From Candidatus Saccharimonadota bacterium (lineage in GTDB: Bacteria > Patescibacteriota > Saccharimonadia > Saccharimonadales > JACOTW01), in contig JACOTW010000010.1 in assembly GCA_016178135.1 (NCBI GenBank), positions 1-44,853 on the forward strand: a stretch of DNA of 44,853 bases, written 5' to 3'. A program made the position numbers and the translations under genes. This document shows, piece after piece, positions 434 through 41,572 of the stretch. Numbering within the stretch: position 1 is the stretch's first letter; every line of letters starts with the position of its first letter. The notes under the pieces were generated by a model that saw only the letters and a list, made by a program, of their open reading frames with translations, did not search any database and had not been told where the DNA came from.

Positions 434-591
434 CTCGACTCACCCGAAACTCCTCCATCCCCAGACCGAATTCTATCGGCTGCAAACAGTTTTTCTTCTC
501 TCTATGTACCTTCAGGTACCTCTCCTTCAGACAAAACTGTTTTCGCTCGAGCTGATTCGTCCTGGGAACGAGGGATTTTGCGTAAGTCCAG
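434..591. mobile_element. Family A MITE, subtype A1, 158 bp, intergenic
   Basis: Ends CTCGACTCACCCGAAA / TTTGCGTAAGTCCAG; homologous to copies at 12020, 23586, 26976; flanks TTTA/TAGA do not match. Confidence 0.9.
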
Positions 592-616
592 TAGAGTCCC
601 TAAAATGTAAAGGTGA

Positions 617-812
617 TATAGCCCCCGCAAAACAAATTCCCGACTTTTCGAATCACCCTCTTTGGCCCAAAACCGCCTTTCCTCGTTCAACGTATCTAAG
701 GATATGTCTCTCTCGGAAAAGTCAGTTTTTGGCTCAAAGATCATTGCTTCAAAAACTTTGGCTCAAAGATCATTGCTTCAAAAACCCACGAATTTGTTTT
801 GCGGGGGCTATA
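617..812. mobile_element. Family B MITE with internal 29-bp tandem duplication
   Basis: TATAGCCCCCGCAAAACAAATTC ... GAATTTGTTTTGCGGGGGCTATA; duplication 728-756/757-785; near-identical to 6641-6807 in opposite orientation. Confidence 0.92.
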
Positions 813-872
813 GCTTCGGTATCTATGGCGAAACATTTTAGGTTGTTTTAAAGAGGTTTTACATAAGACCAG

Positions 873-1817
873 TCAATACTGATATGGCGTGAGCCAGTGA
901 GCGAATTGTTTTTTATCGCCCCTCAAAACAGCTGCGTAATATTTCATGAGTTTTGCCGTAATCGGACCAATGTAACCATCCCCAATCAGGCGTTTATCTA
1001 CCGACAAAACTGGCGTTATTTTGGCACTAGACCCGCACATAAAAACCTCATCCGCCAAATACAGTTCGCTTCTATCAACACTCCGTTGCTCATGCGCAAG
1101 CTTTAAACTATCTGCGATAGCTAGCACACTATTACGAGTAATACCTTCTAATATATCAGTGGAGCCATCGGGAGTTATCAACTTTCCATCGCGGACGATA
1201 AACAAATTAGCAACCGTACCTTCAGCAACATGACCATGCTCGTCCATAGCAATAGCCTCGTCATAGCCGTTTAGTAAGGCTTCGTTTTTCATCAAACCGG
1301 CATTGGCATAGTTGCCGTTCACTTTGGCACGAGGAGGTATAGCGTTATCTGGAGTTCTAGTCCAACTACTCACGCAAACATCAATTGCATCTTTACCATG
1401 TAAACTACCCATCGGATAGATATAGGCACTGAAGGAATTGGTTAGACCACGCATCTTGGTACCAGGGGCCAGTTCATCTATAAACACCGTTGCCCTAACC
1501 GAAACGTCCTGTTTGACGGCGTTGCGCTTGATTAGCTCTAACATAGTTGATTCAAACTTTTGATAGGACCAGTTTTGCACAAATCCACCGAAGTCCATGA
1601 TCTTAGCCGAATCCACTAGTCGGTTATAGTGATCACGTAGTCTAAAAATATAAAGTTTTTGCCGTTTATCGTTCCATGTGGCACTAAAAACCGTATAAAC
1701 ACTCAACCCGTACAAAACTGGCGCGCTGGCAATGCTCAAATTCGCATCTTCAAAAGGCACAAACTTATCACGCAAATAAACTTCTGTTTGGTTCAAATTG
1801 AATCGTGTGTTTTTCAT
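873..1817 (-). CDS. ilvE: Branched-chain amino acid aminotransferase (PLP fold IV)
   Basis: LYG motif, AKVNGNY (PLP Lys), EGTVANLF, ILEGITR, DEVFMCGSSA; start taken at MKNTR. Confidence 0.88.
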   Translation of the reverse strand: MKNTRFNLNQTEVYLRDKFVPFEDANLSIASAPVLYGLSVYTVFSATWNDKRQKLYIFRLRDHYNRLVDSAKIMDFGGFVQNWSYQKFESTMLELIKRNAVKQDVSVRATVFIDELAPGTKMRGLTNSFSAYIYPMGSLHGKDAIDVCVSSWTRTPDNAIPPRAKVNGNYANAGLMKNEALLNGYDEAIAMDEHGHVAEGTVANLFIVRDGKLITPDGSTDILEGITRNSVLAIADSLKLAHEQRSVDRSELYLADEVFMCGSSAKITPVLSVDKRLIGDGYIGPITAKLMKYYAAVLRGDKKQFAHWLTPYQY

Positions 1818-1818
1818 A

Positions 1819-6420: not shown

Positions 6421-6645
6421 ATGAACGAACGCTTCGATAAATACGAATTTATGAGACCAGCCTCGTCGAGGAAGGCCACGGCAACAGCCCTAGTATTAGC
6501 CGGCCTAACCATGCCGGGAGTGTTTTTTGGATGGCTAAACGCCAGAAATGATGACGAAAGACTAAATCAGGCACGATTAGAACTAGCTACTACTCAACAG
6601 ACCTTATATGATCCTGCACTGTTCAATGAACAAGTGGAATTATAG
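6421..6645 (+). CDS. Small membrane protein whose stop codon lies in the end of a family B element (possibly truncated)
   Basis: ATG, TM segment; TAG at 6643-6645 is within the TATAG end of the element. Confidence 0.5.
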   Translation: MNERFDKYEFMRPASSRKATATALVLAGLTMPGVFFGWLNARNDDERLNQARLELATTQQTLYDPALFNEQVEL

Positions 6646-6807
6646 TCCCCGCAAAACAAATTCGTGGGTTTTTGAAGCAATGATCTTTGAGTCAAAAACT
6701 GACTTTTCCGAGAGAGACATATCCTTAGATACGTTGAACGAGGAAAGGCGGTTTTGAGCCAAAGAGGGTGATTCGAAAAGTCGGGAATTTGTTTTGCGGG
6801 GGCTATA
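6641..6807. mobile_element. Family B MITE, full length (159-bp core with TATA flanks)
   Basis: TATAGTCCCCGCAAAACAAATTC ... GAATTTGTTTTGCGGGGGCTATA. Confidence 0.92.
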
Positions 6808-6879: not shown

Positions 6880-7209
6880 CTGGATTTACGTAAAATCGCC
6901 CGTTCCCAGGCTAAATCAGCTCGAGCAGATAGTGGTTTGCCTGAAGAAGAGGTAGCTTTAGGGCTAATTAACATCTATCCGTTGATAGCGAATCTTTAGC
7001 AGCTGTCATGATTTTTATTCTGTTTTCTTGGCTTTTGGTCGTACCTATCGGTACGAACCGAAAACAAAAAACAGATTAAAAGTGACAGACCTGAAGATTT
7101 TAGCCGACAGATAGATGTTAATTAGCTCTTGGCTACATCGAGAGAAGACAGACCGCTACCAGCCGAGATTAGTTGGTCTGGGGATGGGGGAGCTTTGCGA
7201 CAGGTCCAG
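6880..7209. mobile_element. Family A MITE, subtype A2 (159-bp variant), interrupted by a family C element
   Basis: CTGGATTTACGTAAA ... TTTGCGACAGGTCCAG; TATA duplication 6876-6879/7210-7213; 330 bp minus 171 bp insert = 159 bp. Confidence 0.9.
6961..7128. mobile_element. Family C palindromic MITE (168 bp) nested in family A
   Basis: Ends GGGCTAATTAACATCTATC / GATAGATGTTAATTAGCTC (1 mismatch); flanks TTA/TTG; centre CGTACC-TATC-GGTACG. Confidence 0.85.
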
Positions 7210-11780: not shown

Positions 11781-11866
11781 TGGTGCGCGGGGCGGGAATC
11801 GAACCCGCACGCCTTTTGGGCACGTGATTTTAAGTCACGACTGTCTACCAATTCCAGCACCCGCGC
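11781..11866 (-). tRNA. tRNA-Leu(TAA)
   Basis: Minus-strand cloverleaf with long variable arm, anticodon TAA, CCA end. Confidence 0.93.
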
Positions 11867-11870
11867 ATTA

Positions 11871-11944
11871 TGGAGGCGCGTACGAGTAACGCTCTCGTCT
11901 AGCAGCTTTTGCAGAGCTGTGCCTAACTTCTCGGCCAACGCGCC
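11871..11944 (-). tRNA. tRNA-Cys(GCA), atypical T-loop
   Basis: GGCGCGT..ACGCGCC-T-CCA; anticodon loop CTGCAAA; T-arm ACGAG-AGCGTTA-CTCGT. Confidence 0.88.
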
Positions 11945-12019
11945 ACAACTATTCTATTATACCGATAGATTTATAAGATGAAAGATGAAAAAATATTACC
12001 TTATCAACCCCTACATATA

Positions 12020-12178
12020 CTGGACTTACGCAAAATCCCTCGTTCCCAGGGCGAATCAGCTCGAGCGAAAACAGTTTTGTCTGAAGGAGAGGTATCTGAA
12101 GGTACATCGATAGAGGAAAAACTGTTTGTAGCCGAGGTTAGTCGGTTTGGGGATGAGGGAGCTTTGCGATAGGTCCAG
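12020..12178. mobile_element. Family A MITE, subtype A1 (159-bp variant)
   Basis: CTGGACTTACGCAAA ... TTTGCGATAGGTCCAG; TATA duplication 12016-12019/12179-12182. Confidence 0.92.
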
Positions 12179-12585
12179 TATACTATTTAGCCAAAATTAG
12201 ATTGCTCACCCAAACAGCTTGCCAACTGTCTCACATATCTCAGTCTAGGTTTTGGGGTACTGGACACTTTTTGCTAAAAAGGTCTGTGCCAAAGAAATCT
12301 TTAGCTCGCACCTCCTCTTCGGCGAAAAAACAGTGCGCGCTTGCGCGTCAGAAATTCTGAATTCCCTTGCAATTCCGCCAAAAAATCGTTGAGTCTAACT
12401 CTGGTGCACCTGATGGCAGGTATCTTGAACTATTAGAAAGTATAAGTGATTGGTTACTGAGTTATCCAGATATAGACTGGAATTTACAGCTTAGCAACGC
12501 TTCACTATCTAGGTTTGTGCCACAGTACCAACTCTGATACGAGCATGTTATTACTCTCGCTAGAAGTCGTTTGAACCATTACTAC

Positions 12586-12614
12586 TTGCATAAATACCAA
12601 TAATATGCTACTAT
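12586..12614 (+). promoter_or_regulatory. Sigma70-type promoter for a leaderless XRE gene
   Basis: TTGCAT-17bp-TACTAT with extended TG; ATG follows 6 nt after the -10. Confidence 0.55.
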
Positions 12615-12620
12615 ACTGCT

Positions 12621-13118
12621 ATGTCAGAAGTAGAACAAGGACAACGAGCCCCTCTTGATCCCAATATGGGTTTGGGAGAGTTTTTAACTTCTATGCAGCT
12701 ATTGGCGGGAGTTCCTCAGAGAGCTTTCTCTGAGGAGTTTCAGGTAAGTCAACAAAGTGTGTCCAGATGGATGAAAGGGACAAGCACCCCAGCATTTGAT
12801 TCGGACAACACTCTACATATTAAAAAGACGTTTGGTCTTACTGACGAGGAACTTAGAGGTCTAATAGCTAACAATGCCCCTTGGGAACGTCCCGATACAA
12901 CGTCAGTGTCATCTGCCTCAACAAACGCAAGGCGAAGACTAGGCGTTTCTCTACTATCACGACCAGAAGAAAATATACCCAATAGGTCTTATGCCGCTCA
13001 AATGCTCGGAGCTTTCGTCGTAAGGGCTGAAAATGGTCCGCCTCTCAACGAGGTTGAAGCTAATTTGATTAGGTTTCTTGTTCAAACTGAGATTGAAGCT
13101 CCAACTCCTAGAGACTAA
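12621..13118 (+). CDS. XRE-family helix-turn-helix protein
   Basis: QRAFSEEFQVSQQSVSRWMKGTSTP HTH pattern. Confidence 0.7.
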   Translation: MSEVEQGQRAPLDPNMGLGEFLTSMQLLAGVPQRAFSEEFQVSQQSVSRWMKGTSTPAFDSDNTLHIKKTFGLTDEELRGLIANNAPWERPDTTSVSSASTNARRRLGVSLLSRPEENIPNRSYAAQMLGAFVVRAENGPPLNEVEANLIRFLVQTEIEAPTPRD

Positions 13119-13273
13119 CATCCTGCTATTTGGGTGTCGCACAAATACCGATTGCACGACATACCTTAACAGAGGTAGACTCTGATATTTAGCGACACAT
13201 GTTCTTGTCAAGTGCTTGGTTATTTTTCGCCGACCCCTGTTATTTTATATATTATGCAATACTCGGTTTTGAG

Positions 13274-13921
13274 CTAGGTTTCAATAAAATAATGCTGTGC
13301 AGAAGCTACATATTCTTCAAATGGCATAGTAGAAATATCAAAGAATGGGAAGCCCAACCGCTCAGCTTCGGCTTTTAGCTCTGTACACTTCTCGGCTTGT
13401 CTTGCGACCCACTCTCGTATTTTGGTTTCATCACCGCCATCTTTCTCTAACCATACATTTATCCAGTCGTGGGGATTTGCTTTTGCATATTCTAATACTT
13501 GGTCAGCGTGAGAGGGGTTAGTAAAGCCTACGAAAGCAGCTCTTATCGTGAAGTCAGCAACTTTCAAATTCTTAACCCATTCAGGCGTAAAGGCAGCACC
13601 TTCAAAAGCAACAGATTCTTTATTTCGGCGGTAATAATCTAGCATACCTACAACTGCCTGTAGTGTTAACTGTGATTCAGTGCCTTTATTTGAGAATGGC
13701 TTCCTTTCGCCACCCTCTGTAAACGAGGTTTTCCATTCCGCACTACCAGCAAGCTCAATATCACGAAGCATTTGGTGAGGGTCGCCTGTAAGCACATTAC
13801 GGATACCGTGTTCTACGGCATCAGCAGCGATAAAGGCTATACCTTTTTCTTTAGCCAAACCAGACATAATGGTTGTCTTGGCTGTTCTTGGTGGTCCACC
13901 GAGTAAGTAAAGAGTGTTCAT
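13274..13921 (-). CDS. P-loop NTPase/kinase-like protein
   Basis: N-terminal LYLLGGPPRTAKTT Walker A variant. Confidence 0.7.
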   Translation of the reverse strand: MNTLYLLGGPPRTAKTTIMSGLAKEKGIAFIAADAVEHGIRNVLTGDPHQMLRDIELAGSAEWKTSFTEGGERKPFSNKGTESQLTLQAVVGMLDYYRRNKESVAFEGAAFTPEWVKNLKVADFTIRAAFVGFTNPSHADQVLEYAKANPHDWINVWLEKDGGDETKIREWVARQAEKCTELKAEAERLGFPFFDISTMPFEEYVASAQHYFIET

Positions 13922-13952
13922 AAGCTAACTATAGCATTCCTTGTATCTGATA

Positions 13953-13974
13953 GGGGAGGTTTTGACACCTCCCC
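13953..13974. terminator. GC-rich hairpin between the hydrolase and kinase genes
   Basis: GGGGAGGT-TTTGAC-ACCTCCCC. Confidence 0.45.
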
Positions 13975-14027
13975 ATACCGTTCTAGTATCAGCTCTTGAG
14001 CGTCATAGTTAATTTCCTTTCTTAGCT

Positions 14028-14807
14028 TTAAGCTTTCTTTTCTTTAATCCACCGTGCAGTCGTTTCGTATAGTCGTTCCATAGCTCCATCTTCTGTAAAC
14101 GGATGGGATGCATCAGGAATAACTATGTGTTCTGTTTCTGCGTTAATGTTGTTGGTATAGTCTTTTCCAAAACGCTTCATAACCTCACCACTATTAGCTG
14201 CATTTACGACAAGCGTATCAATCGTGAAGTTCTTAGCCATCTCCGTACTGCCTGGTGCATAGCCTTCAAAGACCTTACGGGACAGTACGTAGCCTGATCC
14301 ATTCGCTGAAACGTATGAATCAAGTTCTTTAATGTACATGAAGTCGTTCTCTAGATTCTTTTTCGCTTGGGGTTCATCATAGCCATCCGTATGGCTTGCG
14401 TCCCATAAAACAGCAGCGTCAAACGCTTGTTTTGCGGAGTATACAATCGCCAAACCACTATAACTATGACCTACAACACAAACCCACTCCGAACCTTGTT
14501 CTTTGACGTAATCAACAATCGTATCAATATCTGCTGCATTGGTTTTTACACCAAAGTCGCCAATGTTACGTTGCTTTGTATCGTCACCGTAAAAGCTCAC
14601 TCTTAAAGTCGCAATCCCTTGATCTTCAAAGAAACGGGATGCGTTAAAAAGCAGTAGGTCGTGCATCCAACCACCCAAACCAGGAGCTAGAACTGCTAGT
14701 GGAGAGCTGTAGTCGCCACGCAGTACACCATGTATTTCTAATCCACTGTCAGGGATAGGAATATGCACTTCTGTTTCGTGCATAGCTTCCAAACTAATCT
14801 TTTCCAT
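14028..14807 (-). CDS. Alpha/beta hydrolase
   Basis: APGLGG, GHSYSG, C-terminal ASHPF. Confidence 0.85.
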   Translation of the reverse strand: MEKISLEAMHETEVHIPIPDSGLEIHGVLRGDYSSPLAVLAPGLGGWMHDLLLFNASRFFEDQGIATLRVSFYGDDTKQRNIGDFGVKTNAADIDTIVDYVKEQGSEWVCVVGHSYSGLAIVYSAKQAFDAAVLWDASHTDGYDEPQAKKNLENDFMYIKELDSYVSANGSGYVLSRKVFEGYAPGSTEMAKNFTIDTLVVNAANSGEVMKRFGKDYTNNINAETEHIVIPDASHPFTEDGAMERLYETTARWIKEKKA

Positions 14808-15256
14808 ATCAAACTCCTATAAAAAACCGAACAGTAATGACTTGCTCAATCATACACCTGCTCGGTTTTTTGAAGTTTGTTAGTTACTAAGACACACTAA
14901 AAAGTCGCAGAGAATGTATGACTGTTTTAGCTGATTTCGTAAAGTAACATAATTGTTAATCATAATAACACCATATAATGCTAATGTCAATTATTTTCCG
15001 CTTGTACTTTTCTAATAACAGGGACAAACAGCATAGCCTCACAATACCTCAACATAAACCCTAGAGCTTGTCCAAAGCTCTTAGAATGCGTCACAGAGCG
15101 TGTTTCGGTTGGGGTTCTCTTTCATTACTTGCACTTTGAAATTACAGTCCTTCTATTAACGAGATTTTTCCTGAATTTTTTACCTGATAACGTCATTTAT
15201 TCGTTTATTTACCAGACACTAAATCTATTAAAAACGTTGCAAAATCAATGGAGTTT

Positions 15257-15487
15257 CTAGAAATATGTACTGTAACTAAATACTACTTTATTTCGGTTTT
15301 CTTTTGCGGCTTGCATCTTCTCTGCAAACACTTCATTACTCATATAAGAATAATAAGTCGTAAGGCTAATCCCAGCATAACGACAGGCTTCGCTGATTGT
15401 ACTGTTGTGCTGCAAAGCATCAGTTAATCTAAGCATTGTCTTATAGGTGACCTTTGGTTTTCTGCCTACAGCTTTTTTTATTTCCAT
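15257..15487 (-). CDS. Small HTH protein, phage terminase-small-subunit-like
   Basis: GRKPKVT..TISEACRYAGISLTTYY; family assignment from pattern only. Confidence 0.5.
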   Translation of the reverse strand: MEIKKAVGRKPKVTYKTMLRLTDALQHNSTISEACRYAGISLTTYYSYMSNEVFAEKMQAAKENRNKVVFSYSTYF

Positions 15488-15631
15488 TTCGACTCCTTTG
15501 TTTCCGGTGTTACCTCTATTCTAATTATACAAAATTAGTATAACCATAAGATATACTACCCAGGCTTTGTGAACACCCAGATTAGCCTGTTCTACCAAAG
15601 TTTCCTGGCCTTACAGGGCCGTCATGTCCAG

Positions 15632-15654
15632 ATTGGTGGGCGAGAGAGGACTTG
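15632..15654 (-). repeat. Duplicated 3' end of tRNA-Leu(GAG), att-like
   Basis: ATTGGTGGGCGAGAGAGGACTTG vs ATTGGTGCGCGAGAGAGGACTTG at the tRNA 3' end (1 mismatch). Confidence 0.75.
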
Positions 15655-15794
15655 TACCCATTATGCGTTTCTTTGGATAAATCCTCCAGAAACGGCCAAG
15701 CAAGGAAAACTCAAACAGCCGCCCAGGCTGTTTTCGACCCACGGTTCAAGTCTTAAGCCAATTTAAAAACCCAACATGAGTTGGGTTCTAAAAT

Positions 15795-15878
15795 TGGTGC
15801 GCGAGAGAGGACTTGAACCTCCACGCCTTACGGCACTTGCCCCTCAGACAAGCGTGTCTACCATTCCACCACTCGCGC
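15795..15878 (-). tRNA. tRNA-Leu(GAG)
   Basis: Cloverleaf, anticodon loop CTGAGGG, long variable arm, CCA. Confidence 0.92.
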
Positions 15879-15944
15879 GTGAGTTTTTTTAGTATATCAC
15901 TTTGTCTTAAAAAAGATGGAGTGGTATACTCAATCAGTTATTTG

Positions 15945-16021
15945 GGGTGATTAGCTCAGTTGGCTAGAGCATCTCGTTTACACCGAGAGGGTCGGGGGTT
16001 CGAGTCCCTCATCACCCACCA
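15945..16021 (+). tRNA. tRNA-Val(TAC)
   Basis: GGGTGAT..ATCACCC-A-CCA, anticodon loop TTTACAC. Confidence 0.95.
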
Positions 16022-16114
16022 AGTTCACTTGAGAATTTGCCGAGCACCGCAGGGAAAAGGCCGAAGGCCGCTGTCTGGGAGATCTTCCAGATCGAATATT
16101 TACAGTATAATCAA

Positions 16115-16160
16115 TAGTTGTGGCTCTTTAGCTCAGTTCGCAAACGCAGAGGCTTGAAGA
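16115..16160 (+). pseudogene. Partial duplicate of the 5' half of tRNA-Phe
   Basis: TAGTTGTGGCTCTTTAGCTCAGTT identical to 16243-16266, then GCAGAGGCTTGAAGA; no 3' half. Confidence 0.7.
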
Positions 16161-16249
16161 TGCCGGGGGGCGTAGCCGGTAAATAATATTAGTCCCCTTG
16201 GGACACGAGGTTCTTTAACAAATCGTGCGGTGGTAGAATAAGTAGTTGT

Positions 16250-16325
16250 GGCTCTTTAGCTCAGTTGGTAGAGCAGAGGCTTGAAGAGCCTTGTGTCCCC
16301 AGTTCGAGTCTGGGAGGAGCCACCA
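16250..16325 (+). tRNA. tRNA-Phe(GAA)
   Basis: Cloverleaf, anticodon GAA, TTCGAGT T-loop, CCA. Confidence 0.95.
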
Positions 16326-16326
16326 T

Positions 16327-16385
16327 TCGACTCACTGCGTTCGCTCGTGGTAAACCACTCAAGGAGCTCGTGGTAAACCACTCAA
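16327..16385. repeat. Left REP-like arm of the GIY-YIG cassette, with 20-bp direct duplication
   Basis: TCGACTCACTGCGTTCGCTCGTGGTAAACCAC; GCTCGTGGTAAACCACTCAA at 16343-16362 and 16366-16385. Confidence 0.7.
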
Positions 16386-16423
16386 ACAAAAGCTTATAAC
16401 AACTTAAAAAGTAGACCATAAGC

Positions 16424-16687: not shown

Positions 16688-16737
16688 TCTATCAGTATTC
16701 GTTCATAAGGTGGTTTACAGCTAACAAGTAAAAATTA

Positions 16738-16769
16738 GCGGTTTACCGCGAGCGAGCGAAGCGAGACGA
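16738..16769. repeat. Right REP-like arm of the GIY-YIG cassette
   Basis: Reverse complement matches 16327-16358 at 26/32 positions. Confidence 0.7.
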
Positions 16770-17561: not shown

Positions 17562-17616
17562 GCGACAATATCGCCGTGAAGATGTAATGAAGTTATTAAA
17601 AAAGAAAGGTATGTAA

Positions 17617-18558: not shown

Positions 18559-18562
18559 AAAC

Positions 18563-19071: not shown

Positions 19072-19104
19072 AAATCTATTTTAGCATAAAATAGTGTGGT
19101 CTAG

Positions 19105-25489: not shown

Positions 25490-27142
25490 TTAATTTAGGT
25501 ATCGGTGGAGAAGGGTTGCTTTGGTTTTACCTATAACTTGTTCTAAGGATAAGAGAGAGGCTTGTGTTAAGCCGTGCATACTACCAAAAGTTTTGAGGAG
25601 TTTTTTACGAGTGGCTGGACCAATACCTGGTATATCATCCAGTAAACTAGCAGTTGCACGTTTGGTTTTCAAGGTAGAGTGGTAGCTGACGACAAAACGA
25701 TGCGATTCGTCTCTAATACGCTGGAGTAGTTTTACCAAATTAGTATTATGCGGCAGATTTATCAGTACAAAATCACCAGATTCCGTCACAAAACCGTCCA
25801 ATTTATGGAGTGTTTTCGGATCTATTGTCACATTTGACGCATGTTTATTGATCACGATTTGCTCTTCGCGTTTAGCAAGACCAACCATAGGTACATCGCC
25901 AACTCCTCGTGCGTCGCGGGCTTTTATGGCCATTTCTAACTGACCCTTGCCACCATCTATAAGTATAAAGTTTGGTTTGGGCCATCTTTTTAGATTAGTT
26001 TCGCTAAAACGACGCTCGATTGTTTCATGCATATTATAAAAATCATTATTTTGGTCTTTTTTGGTTTTGAACTTACGATATTCGCTTTTGTTACTCGCCC
26101 CATTAGTAAACACCACCATGCTGGCCACCACATCCGTGCCGCTCATATGGCTGATGTCATAACCCTCAATCCGGCGCGGAAAGGCTTTTAAACCCAATAA
26201 ATCAACCAATTCATTGAGGGCGTGATCTTTGCTAATGTCCAGAAATTCTTTGTCACTAAATATTACTTGTTGATTCAGTCGTTTCAAGGCAAATAACTGA
26301 TTTCTTGTCTTCGCCGCCGCTTCAAACTGTGAAGTTTTGGCAAATTGTTTCATGTCTTTTTCTAATTCTTTTTCGATATTTTTACGCTTACCTTCAATAA
26401 CAGCTATCAAGCGTCGCAAATTTGCCCGATAATCTTCTAATGACGTTTTACCCTCCTCAAGCCCTGGGTCTAAACCTAAATGATAATGCAGTGTCGCTCG
26501 TTTTTGCCCAGGTGTCTGGCTAGTAGTAAATGGGAAAATTCGTCTCAAAAATTTGAGGGCCTGACGAACGCTTTGCGTACTTAAATATGGGCCAAAATAA
26601 TGCGCGCCATCGTCTAACGGACGGCGTGTAGTGGTGACAGTCGGGAAGTTGTCATCATAATTGATGCGAATATAAACCATCGATTTATCATCGCGAAGCA
26701 AAATATTATAGCGTGGCATATAACGCCGAACCATCTCGGCCTCCAAAAACAACGCCTCAAGCTCACTATCCACCACCATCCAATCGACATCAGCAATTTC
26801 GGCTATTAGGGCTTGGGTTTTTGGATCACGACTCCGACTTTTTTGAAAATATTGTCGTACACGATTTTTCAGAACCGCCGCCTTGCCCACGTAAATAATC
26901 TCGCCCTTGCTGTTTTTATGAAAGTAAACCCCGGGCGATTGGGGTAAGTTTTTTAATTTGGTGACCAAGCCTTTACTGGACTTACCCAAAATCGCCCGTT
27001 TCCGGAGTGAATTATCTCCAGCGAAAACTGTTTTATCTGAAGGAGAGGCACCTGAAGATACATCGGAAGAAGAAAAACTATTTGCAGCCGATAGAATTCG
27101 ATCTGGGGGTGGAGGAGTTTTGGGTAAGTTGAGTTTATGCAT
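25490..27142 (-). CDS. uvrC: Excinuclease ABC subunit C with an in-frame 54-aa MITE insertion near the N-terminus
   Basis: LPQSPGVY..IIYVGKA..RVRQYF, IEGYDISH, IDGGKGQ, RDESHRF, HhH. Confidence 0.95.
   Translation of the reverse strand: MHKLNLPKTPPPPDRILSAANSFSSSDVSSGASPSDKTVFAGDNSLRKRAILGKSSKGLVTKLKNLPQSPGVYFHKNSKGEIIYVGKAAVLKNRVRQYFQKSRSRDPKTQALIAEIADVDWMVVDSELEALFLEAEMVRRYMPRYNILLRDDKSMVYIRINYDDNFPTVTTTRRPLDDGAHYFGPYLSTQSVRQALKFLRRIFPFTTSQTPGQKRATLHYHLGLDPGLEEGKTSLEDYRANLRRLIAVIEGKRKNIEKELEKDMKQFAKTSQFEAAAKTRNQLFALKRLNQQVIFSDKEFLDISKDHALNELVDLLGLKAFPRRIEGYDISHMSGTDVVASMVVFTNGASNKSEYRKFKTKKDQNNDFYNMHETIERRFSETNLKRWPKPNFILIDGGKGQLEMAIKARDARGVGDVPMVGLAKREEQIVINKHASNVTIDPKTLHKLDGFVTESGDFVLINLPHNTNLVKLLQRIRDESHRFVVSYHSTLKTKRATASLLDDIPGIGPATRKKLLKTFGSMHGLTQASLLSLEQVIGKTKATLLHRYLN
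26976..27133. mobile_element. Family A MITE (A1, 158 bp) in-frame in uvrC
   Basis: TTTA duplication 26972-26975/27134-27137; removing 162 bp gives MHKGLVTKLKNLPQSPGVY. Confidence 0.92.
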
Positions 27143-28028: not shown

Positions 28029-29774
28029 TTAACGAAGCAATAACAAAGCAGCGATAACTACCCCAAATAATACAGCGATAATAATTATGGCAGGTGGCAA
28101 TGTTTGCGACCGTTGACTGGACTTAGGTGCAACGCCAAAACCATTGGCCCCATAAGCCGAGGGCATTGACTTGCTAGTGTTGTGCGGACTCTGGTTAGAG
28201 ATGGAACCATAGGCTGCATCATCGTTTTTATTGAACTCACGCGAAATCTCTCGTTCTTGGAGTAAACTGGACTTACCCAAAACCCCTCGTTCCCAGAGCG
28301 AATCAGATCGAGCAAAAACAGTTTTATCTGAAGGAGAGGTACCTGATTTACTGTGTCTTAAATGCTCCTGTGAATCTTGGCGATGTAAGCTATCAATTAG
28401 AATAGTTTCAAAACGATTACCGCTCAAAAATTCGCGCACTACACGTCTTAAGCCTATCGTATCAAGCCGACCCGCTTCATACATCTGTTTTACGCTAACA
28501 CCCCCTGATTCCATGTGTTTTGCCACCTCCAGAAGCTCAATCAAGGACATAGTTTCCGTCTTTTTAGGAGCTTCCTGGGCAGCTATCGGTAGCACCTCCA
28601 TTTTTGGCAACACCATTTTTGCCAACCTCTCCGCTTTTACTGGCAATCTATTTTCTGTCCGCTTTTCTTGTTTATTTTCACGATGCGTATCTAGCCGATC
28701 GGTCAATACCGGCCTAGCGATTCCCGGCTTATGTTTGATTGTGAGAGGGGCAAGTTTACGAATTTTTTCTTCGCGATCTGAAATACTAATCTGCAAGTTT
28801 TTTACTTCTTTGGTTAACTTTTCCTGAATGGGTAGCAATCGCTTTTCTGTTTTAATCCGCCCGCGGCGTCGACCAATTAAATAACCCACGATGCCGCCCG
28901 TCAAAACATCGCCGACTCTTTGATGACGTAACGGCAAGACCTTTGGGCTGGTATCCATGGCGTTTGGAGCTGGAGCTACAACATCTGACTCACTCAATAT
29001 CGAGATTGGAGGCACACCCAAACTTGACGGAGGTGCCGATGCGGAAACGGCGATCGGATTAACTGTAACTGGCCGATCATCTTCGGTTTCTTCGGCAATA
29101 TCAAGATCATTCATAGTATCTACCAAAATTTTATCGAGCAAATCTTCGTTAATTTCCTCATCACCATCCAAACCTTCCTGAATATTTTCCAGAAGCATAG
29201 CATTGGCTACGACGGCTGCCTCCTCCGGACTGTCCGGCTCTAATTGGTCAAGTTCCTGTTTTACATCTTCAGTTCTGGCTTGTACATATTGTTCTATGAC
29301 AAATCTTTGTTCGTTGTTCGTCAATTTCTCAAGATTTTTCGATTTGTCTTCTTGTTCTGATTGCTTACTAGACTCTTGCGCAATTTCCTCGTCATCATAT
29401 CTAATAACCTCGGTTACTTGAGTTGATTCACCTTGGAAACGAGGGGTTTTGGGTAGACTGGACTTACGCAAAGCTCCCCCATCCCCAGACCAATTCATCT
29501 CGGCTGGTAGCGGTCTGTCTTCTCTCGATGTAGCTATGGCTACCTCTCCTTCAGTCAAACCACTCCCAACTCGAGCTGATTTAGCCTGGGAACGGGCGAT
29601 TTTACGTAAGTCCAGTAGATCTTGCTTATCGTCTGTAACAATTTCAAAAATTGGTAATTTTTTGTTGGATTTTTTGTTCTTCTTGTCTTTTTTCTCGGCA
29701 ATATCAAAAAAACTCTCAAACGAACTCATCATTCGTTTATCGTTGTCCGAGTTATCGCTACCCGATATTTCCAT
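28029..29774 (-). CDS. Hypothetical protein (acidic, C-terminal TM) with several in-frame MITE-derived segments
   Basis: 581-aa uninterrupted ORF; GGIVGYLIGRRRGRIKTEK; element peptides near both ends. Confidence 0.8.
   Translation of the reverse strand: MEISGSDNSDNDKRMMSSFESFFDIAEKKDKKNKKSNKKLPIFEIVTDDKQDLLDLRKIARSQAKSARVGSGLTEGEVAIATSREDRPLPAEMNWSGDGGALRKSSLPKTPRFQGESTQVTEVIRYDDEEIAQESSKQSEQEDKSKNLEKLTNNEQRFVIEQYVQARTEDVKQELDQLEPDSPEEAAVVANAMLLENIQEGLDGDEEINEDLLDKILVDTMNDLDIAEETEDDRPVTVNPIAVSASAPPSSLGVPPISILSESDVVAPAPNAMDTSPKVLPLRHQRVGDVLTGGIVGYLIGRRRGRIKTEKRLLPIQEKLTKEVKNLQISISDREEKIRKLAPLTIKHKPGIARPVLTDRLDTHRENKQEKRTENRLPVKAERLAKMVLPKMEVLPIAAQEAPKKTETMSLIELLEVAKHMESGGVSVKQMYEAGRLDTIGLRRVVREFLSGNRFETILIDSLHRQDSQEHLRHSKSGTSPSDKTVFARSDSLWERGVLGKSSLLQEREISREFNKNDDAAYGSISNQSPHNTSKSMPSAYGANGFGVAPKSSQRSQTLPPAIIIIAVLFGVVIAALLLLR
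28233..28346. mobile_element. Two nested partial family A ends inside the hypothetical gene
   Basis: Degenerate end 28233-28266, then CTGGACTTACCCAAA...AGGTACCTGA at 28267-28346. Confidence 0.75.
29458..29615. mobile_element. Family A MITE (A2, 158 bp) in-frame, adjacent to an older A remnant (about 29418-29457)
   Basis: TAGA duplication 29454-29457/29616-29619; encodes LDLRKIARS...GALRKSS. Confidence 0.93.
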
Positions 29775-34608: not shown

Positions 34609-35241
34609 TTAGAAAAAATACCTGAAGATATTAACTGTAATTTCCCCAAAAGCAATTACCAAACCAATACCTGCCACACCCACTACGCATCCGAACAAAA
34701 ACAACAAAGAATCGCTAAAAATTAACCCGAGAGCAACTACTACGGCACCAAGCGAAGGGATAGTATCAAGACCTGAAAATGGTGGCGCCAAAAAAGCACT
34801 AAGTGCTAAAGTAAAAAAAATAGCACCAGCCAAGCGCGTAAAATAAAAATTATTAATAAGCCCTCTCAAACGTGGTCTGGAAAACTTCTCAAACCATTGA
34901 ATTCGATCAATCATAAACGGTATAGTTTTTTTTTGAAACATTTCTCCAAACTCCTTTTTGCGCCAACTTTTAGGCAACCACAAGGTTTTCATACCAACAA
35001 TCATCTCTAAACTTAAAAGCATGACAATAAGTTCAAATACGTGAGTCACACCTCCTGTTGGCAATGGCAATGCTGGTATGAACATGAGAAACAAAATAGC
35101 TACAGCAAAACCGCGTTCTTCAAAAATCATCTCCAACGAACCCAGTGTTTTTTTGTCATTATTATCAAGCCACTCTTTAAATTGCTGGCTAAAAAGTTGC
35201 TTAGAGCCTATGCTAGGTAGTTTCTTGGGTGTTGAACTCAT
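34609..35241 (-). CDS. ExoD-like membrane protein
   Basis: FIPALPLPTGG..LWLPK..FSRPRL..PFSGLDTIP; start at MSSTPKK with TACACT 6 nt upstream. Confidence 0.78.
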   Translation of the reverse strand: MSSTPKKLPSIGSKQLFSQQFKEWLDNNDKKTLGSLEMIFEERGFAVAILFLMFIPALPLPTGGVTHVFELIVMLLSLEMIVGMKTLWLPKSWRKKEFGEMFQKKTIPFMIDRIQWFEKFSRPRLRGLINNFYFTRLAGAIFFTLALSAFLAPPFSGLDTIPSLGAVVVALGLIFSDSLLFLFGCVVGVAGIGLVIAFGEITVNIFRYFF

Positions 35242-35275
35242 AAGCCCAGTGTAACAAACAATGGTCAATAATATA

Positions 35276-35434
35276 CCGGACCTACCCAAAGCTCCCCCAT
35301 CCCCAGACCAATTCATCTCGGCTGGTAGCGGTCTGTCTTCTCTCGATGTAGCTATGGCTACCTCTCCTTCAGTCAAACCACTCCCAACTCGAGCTGATTT
35401 AGCCTGGGAACGGGCGATTTTGCGACAGGTCCAG
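35276..35434. mobile_element. Family A MITE (A2, 159-bp variant), intergenic
   Basis: TATA duplication 35272-35275/35435-35438; interior essentially identical to 29458-29615. Confidence 0.93.
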
Positions 35435-36972: not shown

Positions 36973-37065
36973 CTGGACCTGTTGCAAAATCCCTCGTTCC
37001 CAAAGCGAATCAGCTCGAGCCGAGATTAGTCGGTCTGGAGATGGGGGAGCTTTGCGTCAGTCCAG
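36973..37065. mobile_element. Internally deleted family A MITE (93 bp) supplying the obgE C-terminus and stop
   Basis: Both termini present; TAAA duplication 36969-36972/37066-37069. Confidence 0.9.
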
Positions 37066-38486
37066 TAAAACTCAATTTCTCCTAAGGATGGATTGCCAAA
37101 AATAATTTTGTCGTCTGTTTTTATACCTTGGCGAGTGAGCTCATGCATAATGCCCATTTTTTTCATAATATCACGTAGGCGCCGTACACCAGCCGAATTA
37201 GCAAAATCAGTTCTAGCGGCAAAACGTTCAATTTTTTTGCCGGTAATCTCATAACCTCGACTGATTTTTTTAACATGCCAAGCTTCTTCATTCTCAATCG
37301 TTAAAATTGGCAATGAACTGACCTCGTTAACCTCGTCAGGTTGTTTGGCGCGCTCCGTATCAACAATAGTTTTTAGCTTATACAATAATTCAGATATATT
37401 TTGTTTGCTCTGTGAAGATATAGCTACTACAGACACACCTTTGGGAAGAGCTTTTTTAAGTGTTTTGATATGATTAGCGACTATTTTGTCGTCAAGACCT
37501 TCAATTTTGGTCAATGCCACTATTCGTGGACGCTTTGATAAATCTATCTTGTAGGCTTTTAGCTCGCCTTCAACTATCTTGAACGATTCTACAATATCTT
37601 CATCATAAACGTCTATCAACTGTAGGAGCACGCCAGTTCGTTCCACGTGTCGTAAAAACTCGTCGCCCAGCCCTTTGCCTTGACTCGCCCCTTCTATGAG
37701 TCCCGGGATATCGGCAATCAATAGACTAGACTTATCGTCAATATCCACTACTCCTAGATTTGGAGTAAGTGTAGTGAATGGGTAGTTAGCAATTTCTGGC
37801 TTGGCATTACTAACGCTGGCCAAAAGAGTAGATTTACCGGCATTTGGTAGACCGATCAATCCAACATCGGCAATCATTTTCAGTTCTAATGTTACGGAAA
37901 ACTCCTGGCCCTTTTCGCCCTTTTCTGCTACTTGTGGTGCTTGACGAGTAGACGAAACAAAATGAGCGTTGCCAAATCCGCCCTTGCCACCCTTGGCCAA
38001 AATAACTTCTTGACCATCAACTGTCAAATCGGCCAATAGTTGGGCGTGTTCGTTTAAACTCGACTTACGCGAAATCTCTCGTTCTCGGTGTAAATCAGCT
38101 CCAACTAAGTCTGTTTTATCTGAAGAACTGTTAGCATTCGAGATTATTTGGTCTGGGGATGGGGGAGCTTTGCGTAAATCCAGTTTAGGTGATTTGAGCA
38201 TAACCGTCGTACCAACAGGTACCGCCACTCGCGTATCAGTGCCACTTCTACCATGTTTTTTTCTTTTGTCGCCAGGTTTGCCAGATTGAGCAATTAACTC
38301 TCTTTGATAACGAAAATTGGCAAGTGTGTTTTGATTGCGACTGGCTACGAATATGATATCGCCACCATCGCCACCATCGCCACCATCCGGTCCACCTAGA
38401 CGGATATATTTTTCATGACGAAAACTAACCCGCCCATCGCCACCACTACCGGCCTTTAATGTAACTTCTGCTTTATCCACAAACAT
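37026..38486 (-). CDS. obgE: GTPase ObgE/CgtA with internal MITE-derived insertion and MITE-derived C-terminus
   Basis: MFVDKA..GGPDGGDGG, GLPNAGKST, YPFTTL, DIPG, TKIE. Confidence 0.97.
   Translation of the reverse strand: MFVDKAEVTLKAGSGGDGRVSFRHEKYIRLGGPDGGDGGDGGDIIFVASRNQNTLANFRYQRELIAQSGKPGDKRKKHGRSGTDTRVAVPVGTTVMLKSPKLDLRKAPPSPDQIISNANSSSDKTDLVGADLHREREISRKSSLNEHAQLLADLTVDGQEVILAKGGKGGFGNAHFVSSTRQAPQVAEKGEKGQEFSVTLELKMIADVGLIGLPNAGKSTLLASVSNAKPEIANYPFTTLTPNLGVVDIDDKSSLLIADIPGLIEGASQGKGLGDEFLRHVERTGVLLQLIDVYDEDIVESFKIVEGELKAYKIDLSKRPRIVALTKIEGLDDKIVANHIKTLKKALPKGVSVVAISSQSKQNISELLYKLKTIVDTERAKQPDEVNEVSSLPILTIENEEAWHVKKISRGYEITGKKIERFAARTDFANSAGVRRLRDIMKKMGIMHELTRQGIKTDDKIIFGNPSLGEIEFYWTDAKLPHLQTD
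38059..38183. mobile_element. Family A MITE remnant (125 bp, 33 bp shorter than full length) in-frame in obgE
   Basis: CTCGACTTACGCGAAA ... TTTGCGTAAATCCAG; encodes LDLRKAPPSPDQ...EISRKSS. Confidence 0.88.
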
Positions 38487-39651: not shown

Positions 39652-39789
39652 GTGTGGGATACACCTGAAGGGTTAGTTCTTATTATTTACAGGACAGTTC
39701 GACCAATCCTGATTATTACTTTACGCCTTAGGGTAACAACCCGCGTATGCCCGACTCAAAAGAGACGCCAAAGGGGAAGTTACCGGAAA

Positions 39790-39818
39790 ATTATAGCAAA
39801 ATAACCGCTGGAAGGCAA
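39790..39818 (-). promoter_or_regulatory. Sigma70 promoter for the LysM-CHAP gene
   Basis: Minus strand TTGCCT-17bp-TATAAT with extended TG. Confidence 0.6.
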
Positions 39819-39843
39819 TCTTTTTTACAGCTATTTATCCCCG

Positions 39844-40875
39844 TTAAGAGCATAGTTTTTTACAGTGCTTGACAGTTAGGGCTTCGTGTTCGGCTAGGGT
39901 ACGCGAAAAATATGTGATGCCGTCATCCCCTGCAACAAAATATAAATAATCGGTATTGCTGGGATTTGCCACTGCCGTAAGCGACGCCAAACTTACATTA
40001 CTAATTGGGCCTGGAGTTAATCCGACATGCAGATGAGTATTAAATGGCGAGTCATAAGTAAGTGAGGCATCTTTACCAGCAATTATTGAACCATAGAAAG
40101 CCGTAACGTCCGAGCCAAGCATCATGCCTTCTCGAAATCTCTTAATAAAGACCTGTGCTACAGTTGGCTTATCTTTGGGGTTATTAACCTCTTGATCGAC
40201 TATTGATGCTAGTATAACTCCTTCGTGAACAGTCAGGCCCTGCTTAATAATTCCAGCCCTTAGTTCAGGGGTCAAGTGTTTATTCATTTCATCCAACGAA
40301 GCTCGAATAATCGTTTCCACCTTGGTGCTATTTGTTTTCTGGAATGATTCCGGATATAAATAACCTTCTAGTGAAGCTTCTTTGGGTTTATTCGCCAGTG
40401 CTGGATGATCCAAATAAAGTGCAGGATTAAGTGCCAGGTCAACATTAGTCGCTGTAAATCCAGAATTAATTAGTGCTTGGCGAATCTGATCTAGGCGTTG
40501 ACCTGGCAAGATAGTTACCAGATCCGTTTTTATTTTGCCTTGAGAAATAATCGCCACAATCTCCTGAACGCTTTGATTGGATCGAAGCAAATATGTTCCA
40601 GCTTGTAACTTGTCGCGGATATTTTGAAAACGAACATACCATTCAAAGGCCCAGGTAGATTTAATAAGACCCTTGTCTTGAAGAATAGTGCCAATTTCTT
40701 TTATTCCAGTTCCAGATGGTATGGTGATCTGCTGAACGTGCTGGGAAGCATTCACCGGTTTCAGGTTTTCCAAATAAATATGTCGCGTTGCAAAAATTGC
40801 CCCGCCAAGTAAAACTACTAGGGTCAAGACAATAACTACTAGTGGTCTAAGCCATCGTTGACTAGATTTACGCAC
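39844..40875 (-). CDS. mltG: Endolytic transglycosylase MltG
   Basis: LQAGTY, LEGYLYPESF, LASIVDQE, SPFNT..GLTPGPISN, YLYFVA. Confidence 0.92.
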   Translation of the reverse strand: MRKSSQRWLRPLVVIVLTLVVLLGGAIFATRHIYLENLKPVNASQHVQQITIPSGTGIKEIGTILQDKGLIKSTWAFEWYVRFQNIRDKLQAGTYLLRSNQSVQEIVAIISQGKIKTDLVTILPGQRLDQIRQALINSGFTATNVDLALNPALYLDHPALANKPKEASLEGYLYPESFQKTNSTKVETIIRASLDEMNKHLTPELRAGIIKQGLTVHEGVILASIVDQEVNNPKDKPTVAQVFIKRFREGMMLGSDVTAFYGSIIAGKDASLTYDSPFNTHLHVGLTPGPISNVSLASLTAVANPSNTDYLYFVAGDDGITYFSRTLAEHEALTVKHCKKLCS

Positions 40876-40969
40876 AAATCCCTCTTTTCCGAAGCAAATC
40901 AGCTTGACACCAGTTTCGCAAAATCGTCCATTCCCAGAGTGAATTATCTCGAGCGAAAACTGTTTTCCC
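40862..40969. mobile_element. Two degenerate partial family A ends
   Basis: CTAGATTTACGCACAAATCCCTC.. and CGCAAAATCGTCCATTCCCAGAGTGAATTATCTCGAGCGAAAACTGTTTT. Confidence 0.7.
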
Positions 40970-41572
40970 TAAACTGGACTTACGCAAAATCGCCCGTTCC
41001 CAGGCTAAATCAGCTCGAGTTGGGAGTGGTTTGGCTGAAGGAGAGGGAGTCGTAGCTACATCGAGAGAAGGCAGACCGCTATCAGCCGAGATTAGTTGGT
41101 CTGGGGATGGGGGAGCTTTGCGTAAGTCCAGTAAAGTAATATAGCCCCCGCAAAACAAATTCGGGGGTTTTGGAGCCGATGATCTTCGAGTCAAAAACTG
41201 GCTTTTCCGAGGGAAGCATATCATTAGATAAGGTGAGTGAGGAAAGACAGCTTTTGGTTCGGCCTTTAGAGAGGTCAGTGCTTCGTCTTGTAAGTAAATG
41301 TCTTTTTGAGTTTTTTGGCCCAAATTTTCGGCAAACTTTCGCACAATTTTTGTTTGGCCGGTATCTTGCCCGTCCAGGCCTCGTGGTAGCCCAACAATAA
41401 TAGTTTGCACTTGTTCTTTTACGCACAATTCTTCCAGATAGTCCCAAATTTTTTCATCATTTAATACCGTGTCATAGGGATGTGCCAAACGAGCCACGCT
41501 ACTAGCAATAGCCACTCCAATACGTACATTGCCAATATCAAGGGCCACAAATTTATGGATTGCTGGTGCCAT
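40868..41572 (-). CDS. ruvX: RuvX/YqgF with its C-terminus replaced by MITE-derived sequence (possibly non-functional)
   Basis: ALDIGNVRIGVA, IIVGLP, QDEALTS; then family B and A peptides. Confidence 0.8.
   Translation of the reverse strand: MAPAIHKFVALDIGNVRIGVAIASSVARLAHPYDTVLNDEKIWDYLEELCVKEQVQTIIVGLPRGLDGQDTGQTKIVRKFAENLGQKTQKDIYLQDEALTSLKAEPKAVFPHSPYLMICFPRKSQFLTRRSSAPKPPNLFCGGYITLLDLRKAPPSPDQLISADSGLPSLDVATTPSPSAKPLPTRADLAWERAILRKSSLGKTVFARDNSLWEWTILRNWCQADLLRKRGICA
40974..41131. mobile_element. Family A MITE (A2, 158 bp) in-frame in the ruvX ORF
   Basis: Perfect 15-bp terminal repeats; TAAA duplication 40970-40973/41132-41135. Confidence 0.93.
41140..41258. mobile_element. Diverged partial family B MITE read in-frame in ruvX
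   Basis: TATAGCCCCCGCAAAACAAATTCGGGGG...; encodes PKAVFPHSPYL...NLFCGGY. Confidence 0.85.

Follow-up and report, generated by a model that had tools for sequence, protein, structure and literature searches.

Family A, the repeat analysed in this work, is mobile but non-autonomous; its ends are of IS701 type, its target duplications are TNNA (4 bp), and only one of its two strands is tuned for folding. It is a MITE-like repeat of 158 bp, present in 104 full-length copies among 226 matches in the 0.8-Mb Saccharimonadales genome from which the window, i.e., the whole 44,853-nucleotide stretch of DNA considered here, was taken. The covariation across the lineages of the family is real, and the explanation that we tentatively prefer is that family A is likely moved in trans by an IS701-family transposase, and that the rod formed by one strand was likely selected while the element spread, the selected form probably being single-stranded DNA at the fork. 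Less probable explanations of the fold, at the level of RNA or of mutation, are weighed below.

The copies, their host genes and the candidate mobiliser

The copies of family A are short, dispersed and without a transposase, as bacterial MITEs are, and they carry both terminal inverted repeats and a target-site duplication. An exact 4-bp duplication was found at 46 of the 70 copies with paired ends, with no duplication of 5–8 bp, and, with refined ends, at 53 of the 104 full-length copies; all 53 are of the form T-N-N-A. The eight copies that the original prediction had divided into subtypes A1 and A2 are indeed one family (CM scores of 149–169 bits for the seven uninterrupted copies), but the stems quoted for them are not shared throughout: the copy at 26976 has A3 outer arms, that at 23586 is decayed, that at 6880 is split and that at 434 is chimeric. 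This third subtype, A3, exists beside A1 and A2 in the arms of the family, and whole helices are swapped between subtypes. The 5' and 3' inner arms are of matching type in 87 of 90 typed copies. The features of the window are the following:

434–591, minus strand: family A copy whose inner stem and apex are A1 and whose 3' outer arm is of type A3 (chimeric 3' arm); folding strand minus; no target duplication
484–542, no strand assigned: A1 inner stem (484–493 with 533–542) around a purine-rich internal loop, and apical hairpin 506–519
6643–6805, plus strand: family B element, 163 bp, TA duplication, other termini but a structured core as in family A, whose model scores it at 77 bits (opposite strand 18.5)
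6880–7209, plus strand: family A copy, A2, TATA duplication, apex interrupted by family C; 330 bp in all
6963–7130, no strand assigned: family C palindromic element nested in the 6880 copy, about 170 bp, ends approximate
12020–12178, plus strand: intergenic family A copy, A1, 159 bp, TATA duplication; its right end is the longer variant
23586–23743, plus strand: family A copy, decayed A1, TATA duplication, intergenic
25490–27142, minus strand: uvrC, host gene carrying an in-frame family A copy
26976–27133, plus strand: family A copy, A3-type arms and A1-type apex, TTTA duplication; uvrC codons 4–57, in frame, antisense
28267–28393, plus strand: half copy of family A, in-frame part of ORF 28029–29774
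29458–29615, minus strand: family A copy, A2, TAGA duplication; in frame and sense in ORF 28029–29774
29509–29564, minus strand: A2 inner stem (29556–29564 with 29509–29517; two G·T wobbles on the minus strand) and apical hairpin 29530–29543
35276–35434, minus strand: family A copy, A2, 159 bp, TATA duplication; 5' end of ORF 34609–35376
36973–37065, plus strand: internally deleted family A copy, TAAA duplication
37026–38486, minus strand: obgE, host gene carrying an in-frame family A copy
38059–38183, plus strand: internally deleted family A copy, 125 bp (129 with target); obgE residues about 102–143, in frame, antisense
40974–41131, plus strand: family A copy, A2, TAAA duplication; 3' tail of ruvX/yqgF

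The reading frames of uvrC and obgE are predicted to run through their copies in frame. More generally, the length added is a multiple of three in 25 of 28 mid-gene copies versus 29 of 51 intergenic ones (p 0.005). Removal from transcripts, which the original prediction had raised, is thus unlikely, because the mid-gene copies keep the frame; a self-removing element of the intron or IStron type would be tolerated in genes independently of frame, and here a frame filter is seen instead. A length of 3n minus the duplication, together with a frame open on both strands, would let the copies survive inside genes.

As for the mobiliser, an autonomous IS701-like element from another Saccharimonadales genome (L186) matches an end variant of family A at both of its ends, over 16 nt, and is flanked by TTTA. 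Its transposase scores 239 bits on NF049921 (cut-off 250), and that of a relative, L175, 332 bits. Related ends are carried by other IS701-like elements and by ISPlag1, as far as the latter is described in PMC2464740; the ends of the IS701 in the carrier G332 differ from those of family A. On the matching ends and the duplication length, the mobiliser is likely an IS701-family transposase acting in trans. The matching IS was found only in that other genome, and searches of the present genome and of four further carriers yielded no transposase that fits: the L186 protein gave no match in five carriers, DDE_Tnp_1 none in the genome itself (0/1), DDE_3 none in five genomes and DDE_5 was present in one of five (G332 only). 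Family A was in turn absent from all five genomes with IS701-like genes, so that none of the genomes searched has both partners. A metagenome scan with a pattern covering the longer end variant only returned 43 matches, none with the element; viral scans gave chance matches, nothing or a single match (L200), and a plasmid scan gave no match.

The one 1.4-kb span between two family A ends has a host gene inside. Origin of the element from the left end of the IS was rejected as unproven: the two share a purine motif and a Shine-Dalgarno-like run, but when compared with shuffles the likeness of the 5' arm failed to reach significance in 13 of 15 lineages and was marginal in the other two, and scattered matches to the other arm are inconsistent. 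Inside their termini, the IS ends show no consistent similarity to the family A arms.

Family B has an apex-anchored architecture in common with family A despite different ends and duplications. TA was found duplicated in 23 of 24 family B copies; a change of end sequence thus goes with a change of duplication length, as it does among DDE families. In 27 of 35 representatives the 3' arm has a bulged A with G-C at 28–32 nt from the apex, mostly at 31; the apical loop is of 4 nt in 32 of 35 and the internal loop is purine-rich.

Stems, covariation and the folding strand

All six motifs quoted in the original prediction were found in the sequence, and the A1 and A2 stems exist. They had been placed at the same positions, which is correct for the apical and outer helices, covarying column by column, but not for the inner helix, slid by one base. 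The register of pairing there is 179 for A1 and 180 for A2, with 10 of 11 columns paired in each case, and each pairs poorly in the register of the other; because the registers differ, the contrast between the two inner stems is a one-base helix slide and not a column-wise compensation. The register shift is also the reason why the RNAalifold consensus leaves the inner stem unpaired, and the covariation counts given below omit most of it. The motifs had moreover been read from opposite strands, those of A1 from the strand of the 434 copy that folds weakly, those of A2 from a strongly folding strand, and the two G·T wobbles of the A2 inner stem are A·C on the opposite strand. The two strands of the 29458 copy fold as RNA at -95.4 vs. 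-60.9 kcal/mol. The folding is far stronger than chance would give: in the two copies examined, the folding strand gave z values of -13.4 and -6.3, with 0 of 200 shuffles equally good; the inner stem of the 26976 copy has two mismatches. An Rfam scan of the window returned tRNAs alone at the gathering threshold and no structured-RNA family for family A, the best E over the 29458 copy being 1.9.

That the hairpin is kept beyond the termini, as originally proposed, is borne out by changes of the compensatory and wobble kind, which keep it on one strand in lineages only 54–86% identical to each other. Both sides have changed in 27 of 40 pairs, which none of 500 shuffles reached; the paired fraction is 93% in the true register versus 28–52% in slid controls, and co-changes on the same branch number 20 against 8.2 ± 2.6 expected (1/2000), counts to be read bearing in mind that the lineages are not independent and that mosaic copies blur the tree.

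By RNA energies (-78 vs. -58) one and the same strand folds better in 89 of 92 copies, and by DNA energies (-38 vs. -27) in 91 of 92. Strand-neutral mismatch counts over 19 lineages give the same picture, with 111 G·T against 28 A·C and with 173 purine-purine against 24 pyrimidine-pyrimidine. Isolated A·G and C·T mismatches stand at 17:6, an excess predicted by DNA but not by RNA energies, which is suggestive only. A·A vs. T·T mismatches are unbiased, and every favoured mismatch contains G.

Orientation, probable timing of selection and alternative explanations

The folding strand is the C-rich strand at 91 of 131 scorable loci (91:40), and 12 of 13 contigs agree. GC skew predicts orientation (p 0.0007), whereas transcription does not (p 0.71; likelihood-ratio, n = 107), replication direction being deduced here from GC skew alone in a 14-contig assembly. 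Family A copies in genes are 25 sense vs. 28 antisense, and those between co-directed genes 14 vs. 19. The full-length copies of the two largest contigs show no orientation bias (18 vs. 19), and in six other genomes the bias has the same direction but is not significant (38:24, p 0.10). Being mostly on the C-rich strand, the folding strand is off the presumed lagging-strand template, the opposite of what the simplest single-stranded DNA model would have. Target asymmetry was rejected as the cause of the bias, as palindromic targets lean alike (11:5) and the 4-mers occur with about equal frequency on the two strands. Progressive loss is disfavoured: the two younger thirds of the copies are biased (42:16) and the oldest third is not (14:15; p 0.03), an age pattern that might also come from rearrangement of old copies. 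In the survey of PMC3971601, IS701 itself showed no replication orientation bias. A literature search, outside of which most subscription journals lie, found nothing on this family or on replication-oriented MITE hairpins.

Changes from Watson-Crick pairs to G·T vs. A·C are 17:1 on internal branches and 76:42 at the tips (p 0.012). After insertion, single-copy mutations affect stems and loops equally (0.017 per unpaired and 0.016 per paired site in 52 copies) and are symmetric (G>A 23, C>T 21, A>G 19, T>C 14). We infer that selection acts on donor lineages. As points against this, the tips keep some G·T bias (63:40 in this genome), tip-branch changes per site are fewer at paired sites (2.8 vs. 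3.5), and the difference between tips and internal branches in keeping or breaking pairs is only marginal (p 0.052).

Among the roles suggested originally, one in mobility appears to fit this evidence best. The folded species would then be DNA, and insertion would be coupled to the fork: a fork or a gap would expose one strand of the element, the rod would unite in one duplex both ends of a segment whose shortness makes looping difficult and would offer a fixed apical surface, and well-folding variants would found new subtypes and insert in a preferred orientation.

The alternative that survives best, though unlikely in our view, is that the fold was selected as RNA during spread: donor transcripts would form the rod and promote or template mobilisation, for example through an R-loop or transposase binding, and the orientation bias would come separately from fork-coupled insertion. 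The bcr1 element, according to the summary in PMC3184786, is transcribed and shows compensation at the RNA level. RNA-like are also the G·U wobbles, the bulged A, the purine-rich internal loop and the 4-nt apical loop, and the strand gap is larger by RNA than by DNA energies; nevertheless, the orientation has no tie to the direction of transcription, the fold has no Rfam match, and RNA energies do not predict the isolated A·G over C·T. IS701-type DDE enzymes are not known to have an RNA partner.

Less probable again is that there was no selection on the fold. Palindromes self-correct through template switching, which between the arms would re-perfect the palindrome and give paired changes, while strand-biased mutation or repair would favour G over C on one strand. 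The whole-helix swaps, the presence of G in all favoured mismatches and the lack of bias between A·A and T·T agree with it; however, bulges and loops persist at fixed distances (the bulged A in 27 of 35) rather than being erased, mutation in resident copies is symmetric, and the folding strand is mostly the C-rich one, where replication bias should remove G.

We consider it improbable that the rod benefits or spares the host as RNA, whether by affecting the stability of mRNA, by being a substrate of RNase III or by being excised from transcripts. Roles of this kind have been proposed for Correia and ERIC elements, which act in this way according to PMC10969869 and PMC2229807. The host has an RNase III, and family B leans antisense to transcription (30:13), avoiding the sense orientation. 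Against this, the orientation of family A is independent of transcription, single-copy mutations spare neither stems nor loops, sense copies are unprotected (G·U 11 vs. A·C 13) and the strong frame filter argues against excision; the mRNA-level reasons for selection offered originally are therefore not supported. Processing of some copies may nevertheless occur as a by-product.

Equally improbable is mobilisation by a resident RAYT-like HUH nuclease, and not IS701, recognising the single-stranded rod as proposed for REPINs, whose hairpins are kept by compensation (PMC3116915): HUH enzymes do recognise single-stranded DNA hairpins of fixed geometry and Y1_Tnp genes occur in 5 of 5 carriers tested (carriers only, so that presence is uninformative), with two such genes in this genome, but these genes are flanked by their own short palindromes (by eye), none of 11 loci has an abutting family A copy (two 32–37-bit matches lie several hundred bases away), and ends and duplication length vary jointly, TNNA for A and TA for B, as in DDE families.

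Comparison with known systems

Returning to the rod as single-stranded DNA, a broader and doubtful proposal is a foldback superfamily of Patescibacteria, in which one conserved rod of a single strand, with its fixed apical helix, its purine loop and its bulged A, would be a portable mobility module on the ends of different DDE families, one IS701-type with TNNA and another with TA, coupling insertion to the fork. If so, DDE transposition would pass through a structured single strand, a type of intermediate linked until now with HUH systems. Long hairpins are predicted for many bacterial MITEs, and the reviews consulted ascribe them to effects on host mRNA; here the signals are separable, as the fold is kept between spreading lineages, on one strand and independently of transcription, and orientation follows replication. 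If the preferred explanation is true, one small transposase and a substrate of 158 bp would allow a direct test of the long-standing question of why the interiors of MITEs and RPE-like elements remain palindromes, and family A would be a parasite saturating a 0.8-Mb genome while being frame-neutral and structurally tuned at once.

IS701 elements of the ISPlag1/NF049921 type resemble family A in the T-N-N-A flank and in a terminal repeat nearly identical to the L186 and ISPlag1 ends; family A differs in that it has no transposase, its interior is not demonstrably derived from IS ends and its orientation is biased, unlike that of IS701 in the survey cited above. Correia/NEMIS and ERIC elements are likewise described as MITEs of about 100–160 bp whose transcripts form long hairpins, but with a reported RNase-mediated action on co-transcribed mRNA, whereas family A has no orientation or constraint linked to transcription. 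The bcr1 element of the Bacillus cereus group (Klevan et al. 2007, summarised in PMC3184786) is similar in being about 155 bp long and mobile, with a fold kept by compensatory changes and individual copies losing stability; it is described with a 5-bp duplication and a cruciform-like fold, while family A is an unbranched rod with a core common to two end types. For REPINs, selection of length and hairpin capacity with compensatory changes has been argued to act on the replicating entity as single-stranded DNA (PMC3116915); these are RAYT/HUH-associated REP doublets, whereas family A inserts into genes, has ends of DDE type and duplicates 4 bp.

Finally, family A appears to work like a palindromic element of Rickettsia (RPE; Ogata and co-workers, summarised in PMC10969869 and PMC2229807), a comparison made on features and peptides, not on RPE DNA. 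Both are described as rod-shaped repeats of about 150 bp, in frame in conserved genes of a host-dependent bacterium, as found here for uvrC, obgE and most mid-gene copies; six family A peptides matched no NCBIfam family at E ≤ 5. The TNNA duplication, the IS701-type ends, the frame open on both strands and the replication-linked orientation set family A apart from the RPEs.

Copies and ends of family A

Family A is a real feature of its genome, in which the window is contig C9 of 14 (799,899 bp in all). An HMM built on six window copies gave 226 distinct matches there, 104 of them full length and usually 158 bp long, or 159–160 bp where a longer end variant is present; matches less than 500 bp apart were nearly always co-oriented (one mixed locus among 147). 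The family is patchy among relatives, with 5 of 40 positive by BLAST, and the other carriers of the repeat are labelled Saccharibacteria or Saccharimonadia. The exact end pattern occurred in 12 of 400 relatives, some by chance, and a covariance model found the family in 2 of 150 genomes sampled phylum-wide, one with at least 19 copies. An A1 copy was also seen on a 1.5-kb contig labelled Pseudomonadales (L023), which is probably mis-binned. A term search found no mention of the host phylum in the main text of a broad MITE survey (PMC11602168).

An exact 4-bp duplication was present at 46 of the 70 paired-end copies, with none at 5–8 bp, and all 53 exact duplications read T-N-N-A. The terminal repeat of ISPlag1 (IS701 group), as given in PMC2464740, shows one difference from family A in its first 13 bases. 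Starting from the IS701 transposase of the carrier G332, the search reached an element, L186, both ends of which match, over 16 nt, the end variant of family A; its left flank is TTTA, and its 353-aa protein scored 239 bits on NF049921, just below the cut-off of 250. Related ends were found on other IS701-like elements of Patescibacteria. Since an L186-type transposase gene was found neither in the own genome nor in four other carriers, and family A was absent from all five IS-bearing genomes examined, it is the ends and the duplication that suggest an IS701-type mobiliser. Six IS701-like loci (L176, L177, L189, L191, L193 and L195) carry a small GC-rich hairpin between left end and start codon. 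RAYT-like genes (background in part of PMC3733652) were present in five of five carriers, flanked by palindromes of their own; these short palindromes were seen at the Saccharimonadales RAYT-like Y1 genes L279–L288, including L282 and L285 (contigs C3 and C13 of the own genome), the flanks of L285 being degenerate short tandem arrays.

Compensatory change in the stems and its timing

The original prediction held that A1 and A2 keep the same stems at the same positions with different sequence. The quoted stems are indeed present and fold far better than shuffles, and both subtypes possess them; the positions, instead, differ, as the inner helix of A2 is slid by one base relative to A1, with 10 of 11 columns pairing in a subtype's own register and 4–6 in the other's. 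Moreover, the strand quoted was the weakly folding one for A1 and the strongly folding one for A2, and several copies listed as subtype members are decayed, mosaic or interrupted. A third subtype, A3, resembles A1 in its inner stem and A2 in its apex.

When 31 copies of the own and other genomes were aligned on sequence alone, both sides were altered in 27 of 40 consensus pairs, a value reached by 0/500 shuffles, and pairing was 93% in the true register vs 28–52% in slid controls. Because the shuffle of the covariation tool ignores relatedness, changes were also counted on the branches of a tree of 88 ungapped cores, made up of the 76 own copies (out of 104) that had a 138-nt core and scored >100, plus 12 others. 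Both partners changed on the same branch 20 times (45 pairs), compared with 8.2±2.6 for permuted partners (1/2000). Of 92 copies, 2 were untyped, and 87 of the other 90 had inner arms of matching type; unlike the inner arms, apex and end types reassort among copies. The fold is thus kept beyond the termini, as had been proposed, covariation being found on both alignment and tree.

Single-copy mutations, scored in 52 copies of five subtypes, fell on unpaired sites at a rate of 0.017 per site and on Watson-Crick sites at 0.016; 29 led to G·T and 19 to A·C (p 0.19), with a symmetric spectrum. On the tree, the ratio of G·T to A·C gains was 17:1 on internal branches and 76:42 on tips (p 0.012). We read the internal-branch bias, together with the equal single-copy rates, as selection on the fold acting mainly on spreading lineages; the tips retain some G·T bias, which counts against a clean split, and the keep-versus-break contrast between tips and internal branches was marginal (p 0.052).

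One strand, shared architecture and replication

With RNA energies the same strand was the better folder in 89 of 92 copies, and with DNA energies in 91 of 92. When arm was aligned against arm, favouring neither strand, 19 lineages of <70% identity gave 111 G·T vs 28 A·C and 173 purine-purine vs 24 pyrimidine-pyrimidine mismatches; 16 lineages leaned the same way, two (the weakest matches) the opposite way and one was tied, and, as the lineages have common ancestry, p-values for this bias are overstated. For isolated outer-stem mismatches (20 representatives), the counts were 45 G·T vs 11 A·C, 14 G·G vs 0 C·C, 17 A·G vs 6 C·T and 2 A·A vs 5 T·T. Two weak rods whose ends are different (L104 and L107, genome G428) have a GA/GCA internal loop twice and no G·T strand bias.

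Read outward from the apex in 35 representatives, the architecture begins with a short helix closed by a 4-nt loop (32/35; loop end TA in 26); then come a purine-rich internal loop, a stem of ~10 bp and, in 27/35, a bulged A with G-C after it, mostly lying 31 nt out on the 3' arm. It is found on different ends: family B, whose ends are unrelated to those of family A (TA duplication in 23/24, 163 bp in 21/24), scored 77 bits with the family A model and 18.5 on its other strand, the family C rod scored 29, and weaker matches in other genomes have ends different again. We take TA-duplicating ends such as those of family B to be IS630-like; a search of 5 genomes gave no IS630 gene. In the own genome family B avoids the sense orientation and has a longer perfect terminal duplex (21–22 bp), which could make it an RNase III substrate. 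Family C (window 6963-7130; contigs C1, C2, C4 and C8 of the own genome), a rod of ~170 bp whose apical hairpin is A1-like, inserts at the apex of A2 copies; of its 11 matches, 9 have the better-folding strand on the C-rich strand. A ~42-bp hairpin, nested at one constant place in several A3 copies and with a similar one in genome G263 (L055), appears to be a fourth, smaller mobile palindrome:

Own genome, C1:8960-9159, A3 copy with nested ~42-bp perfect hairpin
Own genome, C8:84771-84972, same
Own genome, C14:41563-41779, same

GC skew served as proxy for replication direction (of 438 long ORFs that could be scored, the G-rich strand holds 307). Among full-length copies, leaving out 10 in flat regions, the folding strand lay on the C-rich strand in 61 of 94; the figure was 103 of 148 for events and, after declustering (147 loci; 15 flat and one mixed dropped), 91 of 131 for loci, with the lean in 12 of 13 contigs. 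When the two were used together as predictors, skew predicted orientation (p 0.0007) and transcription did not (p 0.71): sense copies exceeded antisense 21:9 in C-rich-strand genes, and antisense exceeded sense 51:26 in G-rich-strand genes. The bias was greater among younger copies; regions around matches in six other genomes gave 38:24 (p 0.10; 19 unscorable). As judged by GC skew, family A orientation follows replication; a survey saw no such orientation bias for IS701 (PMC3971601). Family B, unlike family A, leaned antisense to transcription (30 antisense vs 13 sense, own genome).

The replication link and the excess of A·G over C·T, favoured by 1.3 kcal/mol with DNA energies and by 0 with RNA energies, incline us to single-stranded DNA rather than RNA as the folded species. 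On the other hand, A·G pairs occur commonly in RNA as well, and the presumed lagging-strand template is not the strand that is preferred, which keeps this step tentative.

Host genes and known systems

Within genes, 25 copies are sense and 28 antisense (14 vs 19 between co-directed genes). Additions were multiples of three in 25 of 28 mid-gene vs 29 of 51 intergenic copies (p 0.005), and the reading frames of uvrC and obgE continue through their inserted copies. These observations, with the RPE-like behaviour described below, argue against the suggested removal from transcripts; since the host has RNase III, processing of family A transcripts may occur as a side effect. One frame was open on both strands in eight of eight chosen representatives of 158- and 161-nt lineages (54–86% identical where compared; 1–6% of shuffles), and was missing in 157-nt lineages and several other copies. 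Two further window loci were noted; in the first, the 3' end of ruvX/yqgF has given way to the remnant of a family B element, one complete A2 copy and half of an A3 copy, each read in frame:

40868-41602, minus strand, ruvX/yqgF, match to its profile ending at position 100 of 130
11784-21457, tRNA cluster, in which 21391-21457 partly duplicates the 21178-21261 tRNA

What goes beyond an ordinary MITE is that a structure conserved on one strand, and common to different end types, is combined with a replication-linked orientation. Compensation as in family A is described for bcr1, a mobile repeat of ~155 bp (section 8 of PMC3184786), and for REPINs, in which PMC3116915 links it to the entity that replicates; in genes, family A behaves like RPEs, for which in-frame invasion is reported in PMC10969869 and PMC2229807.
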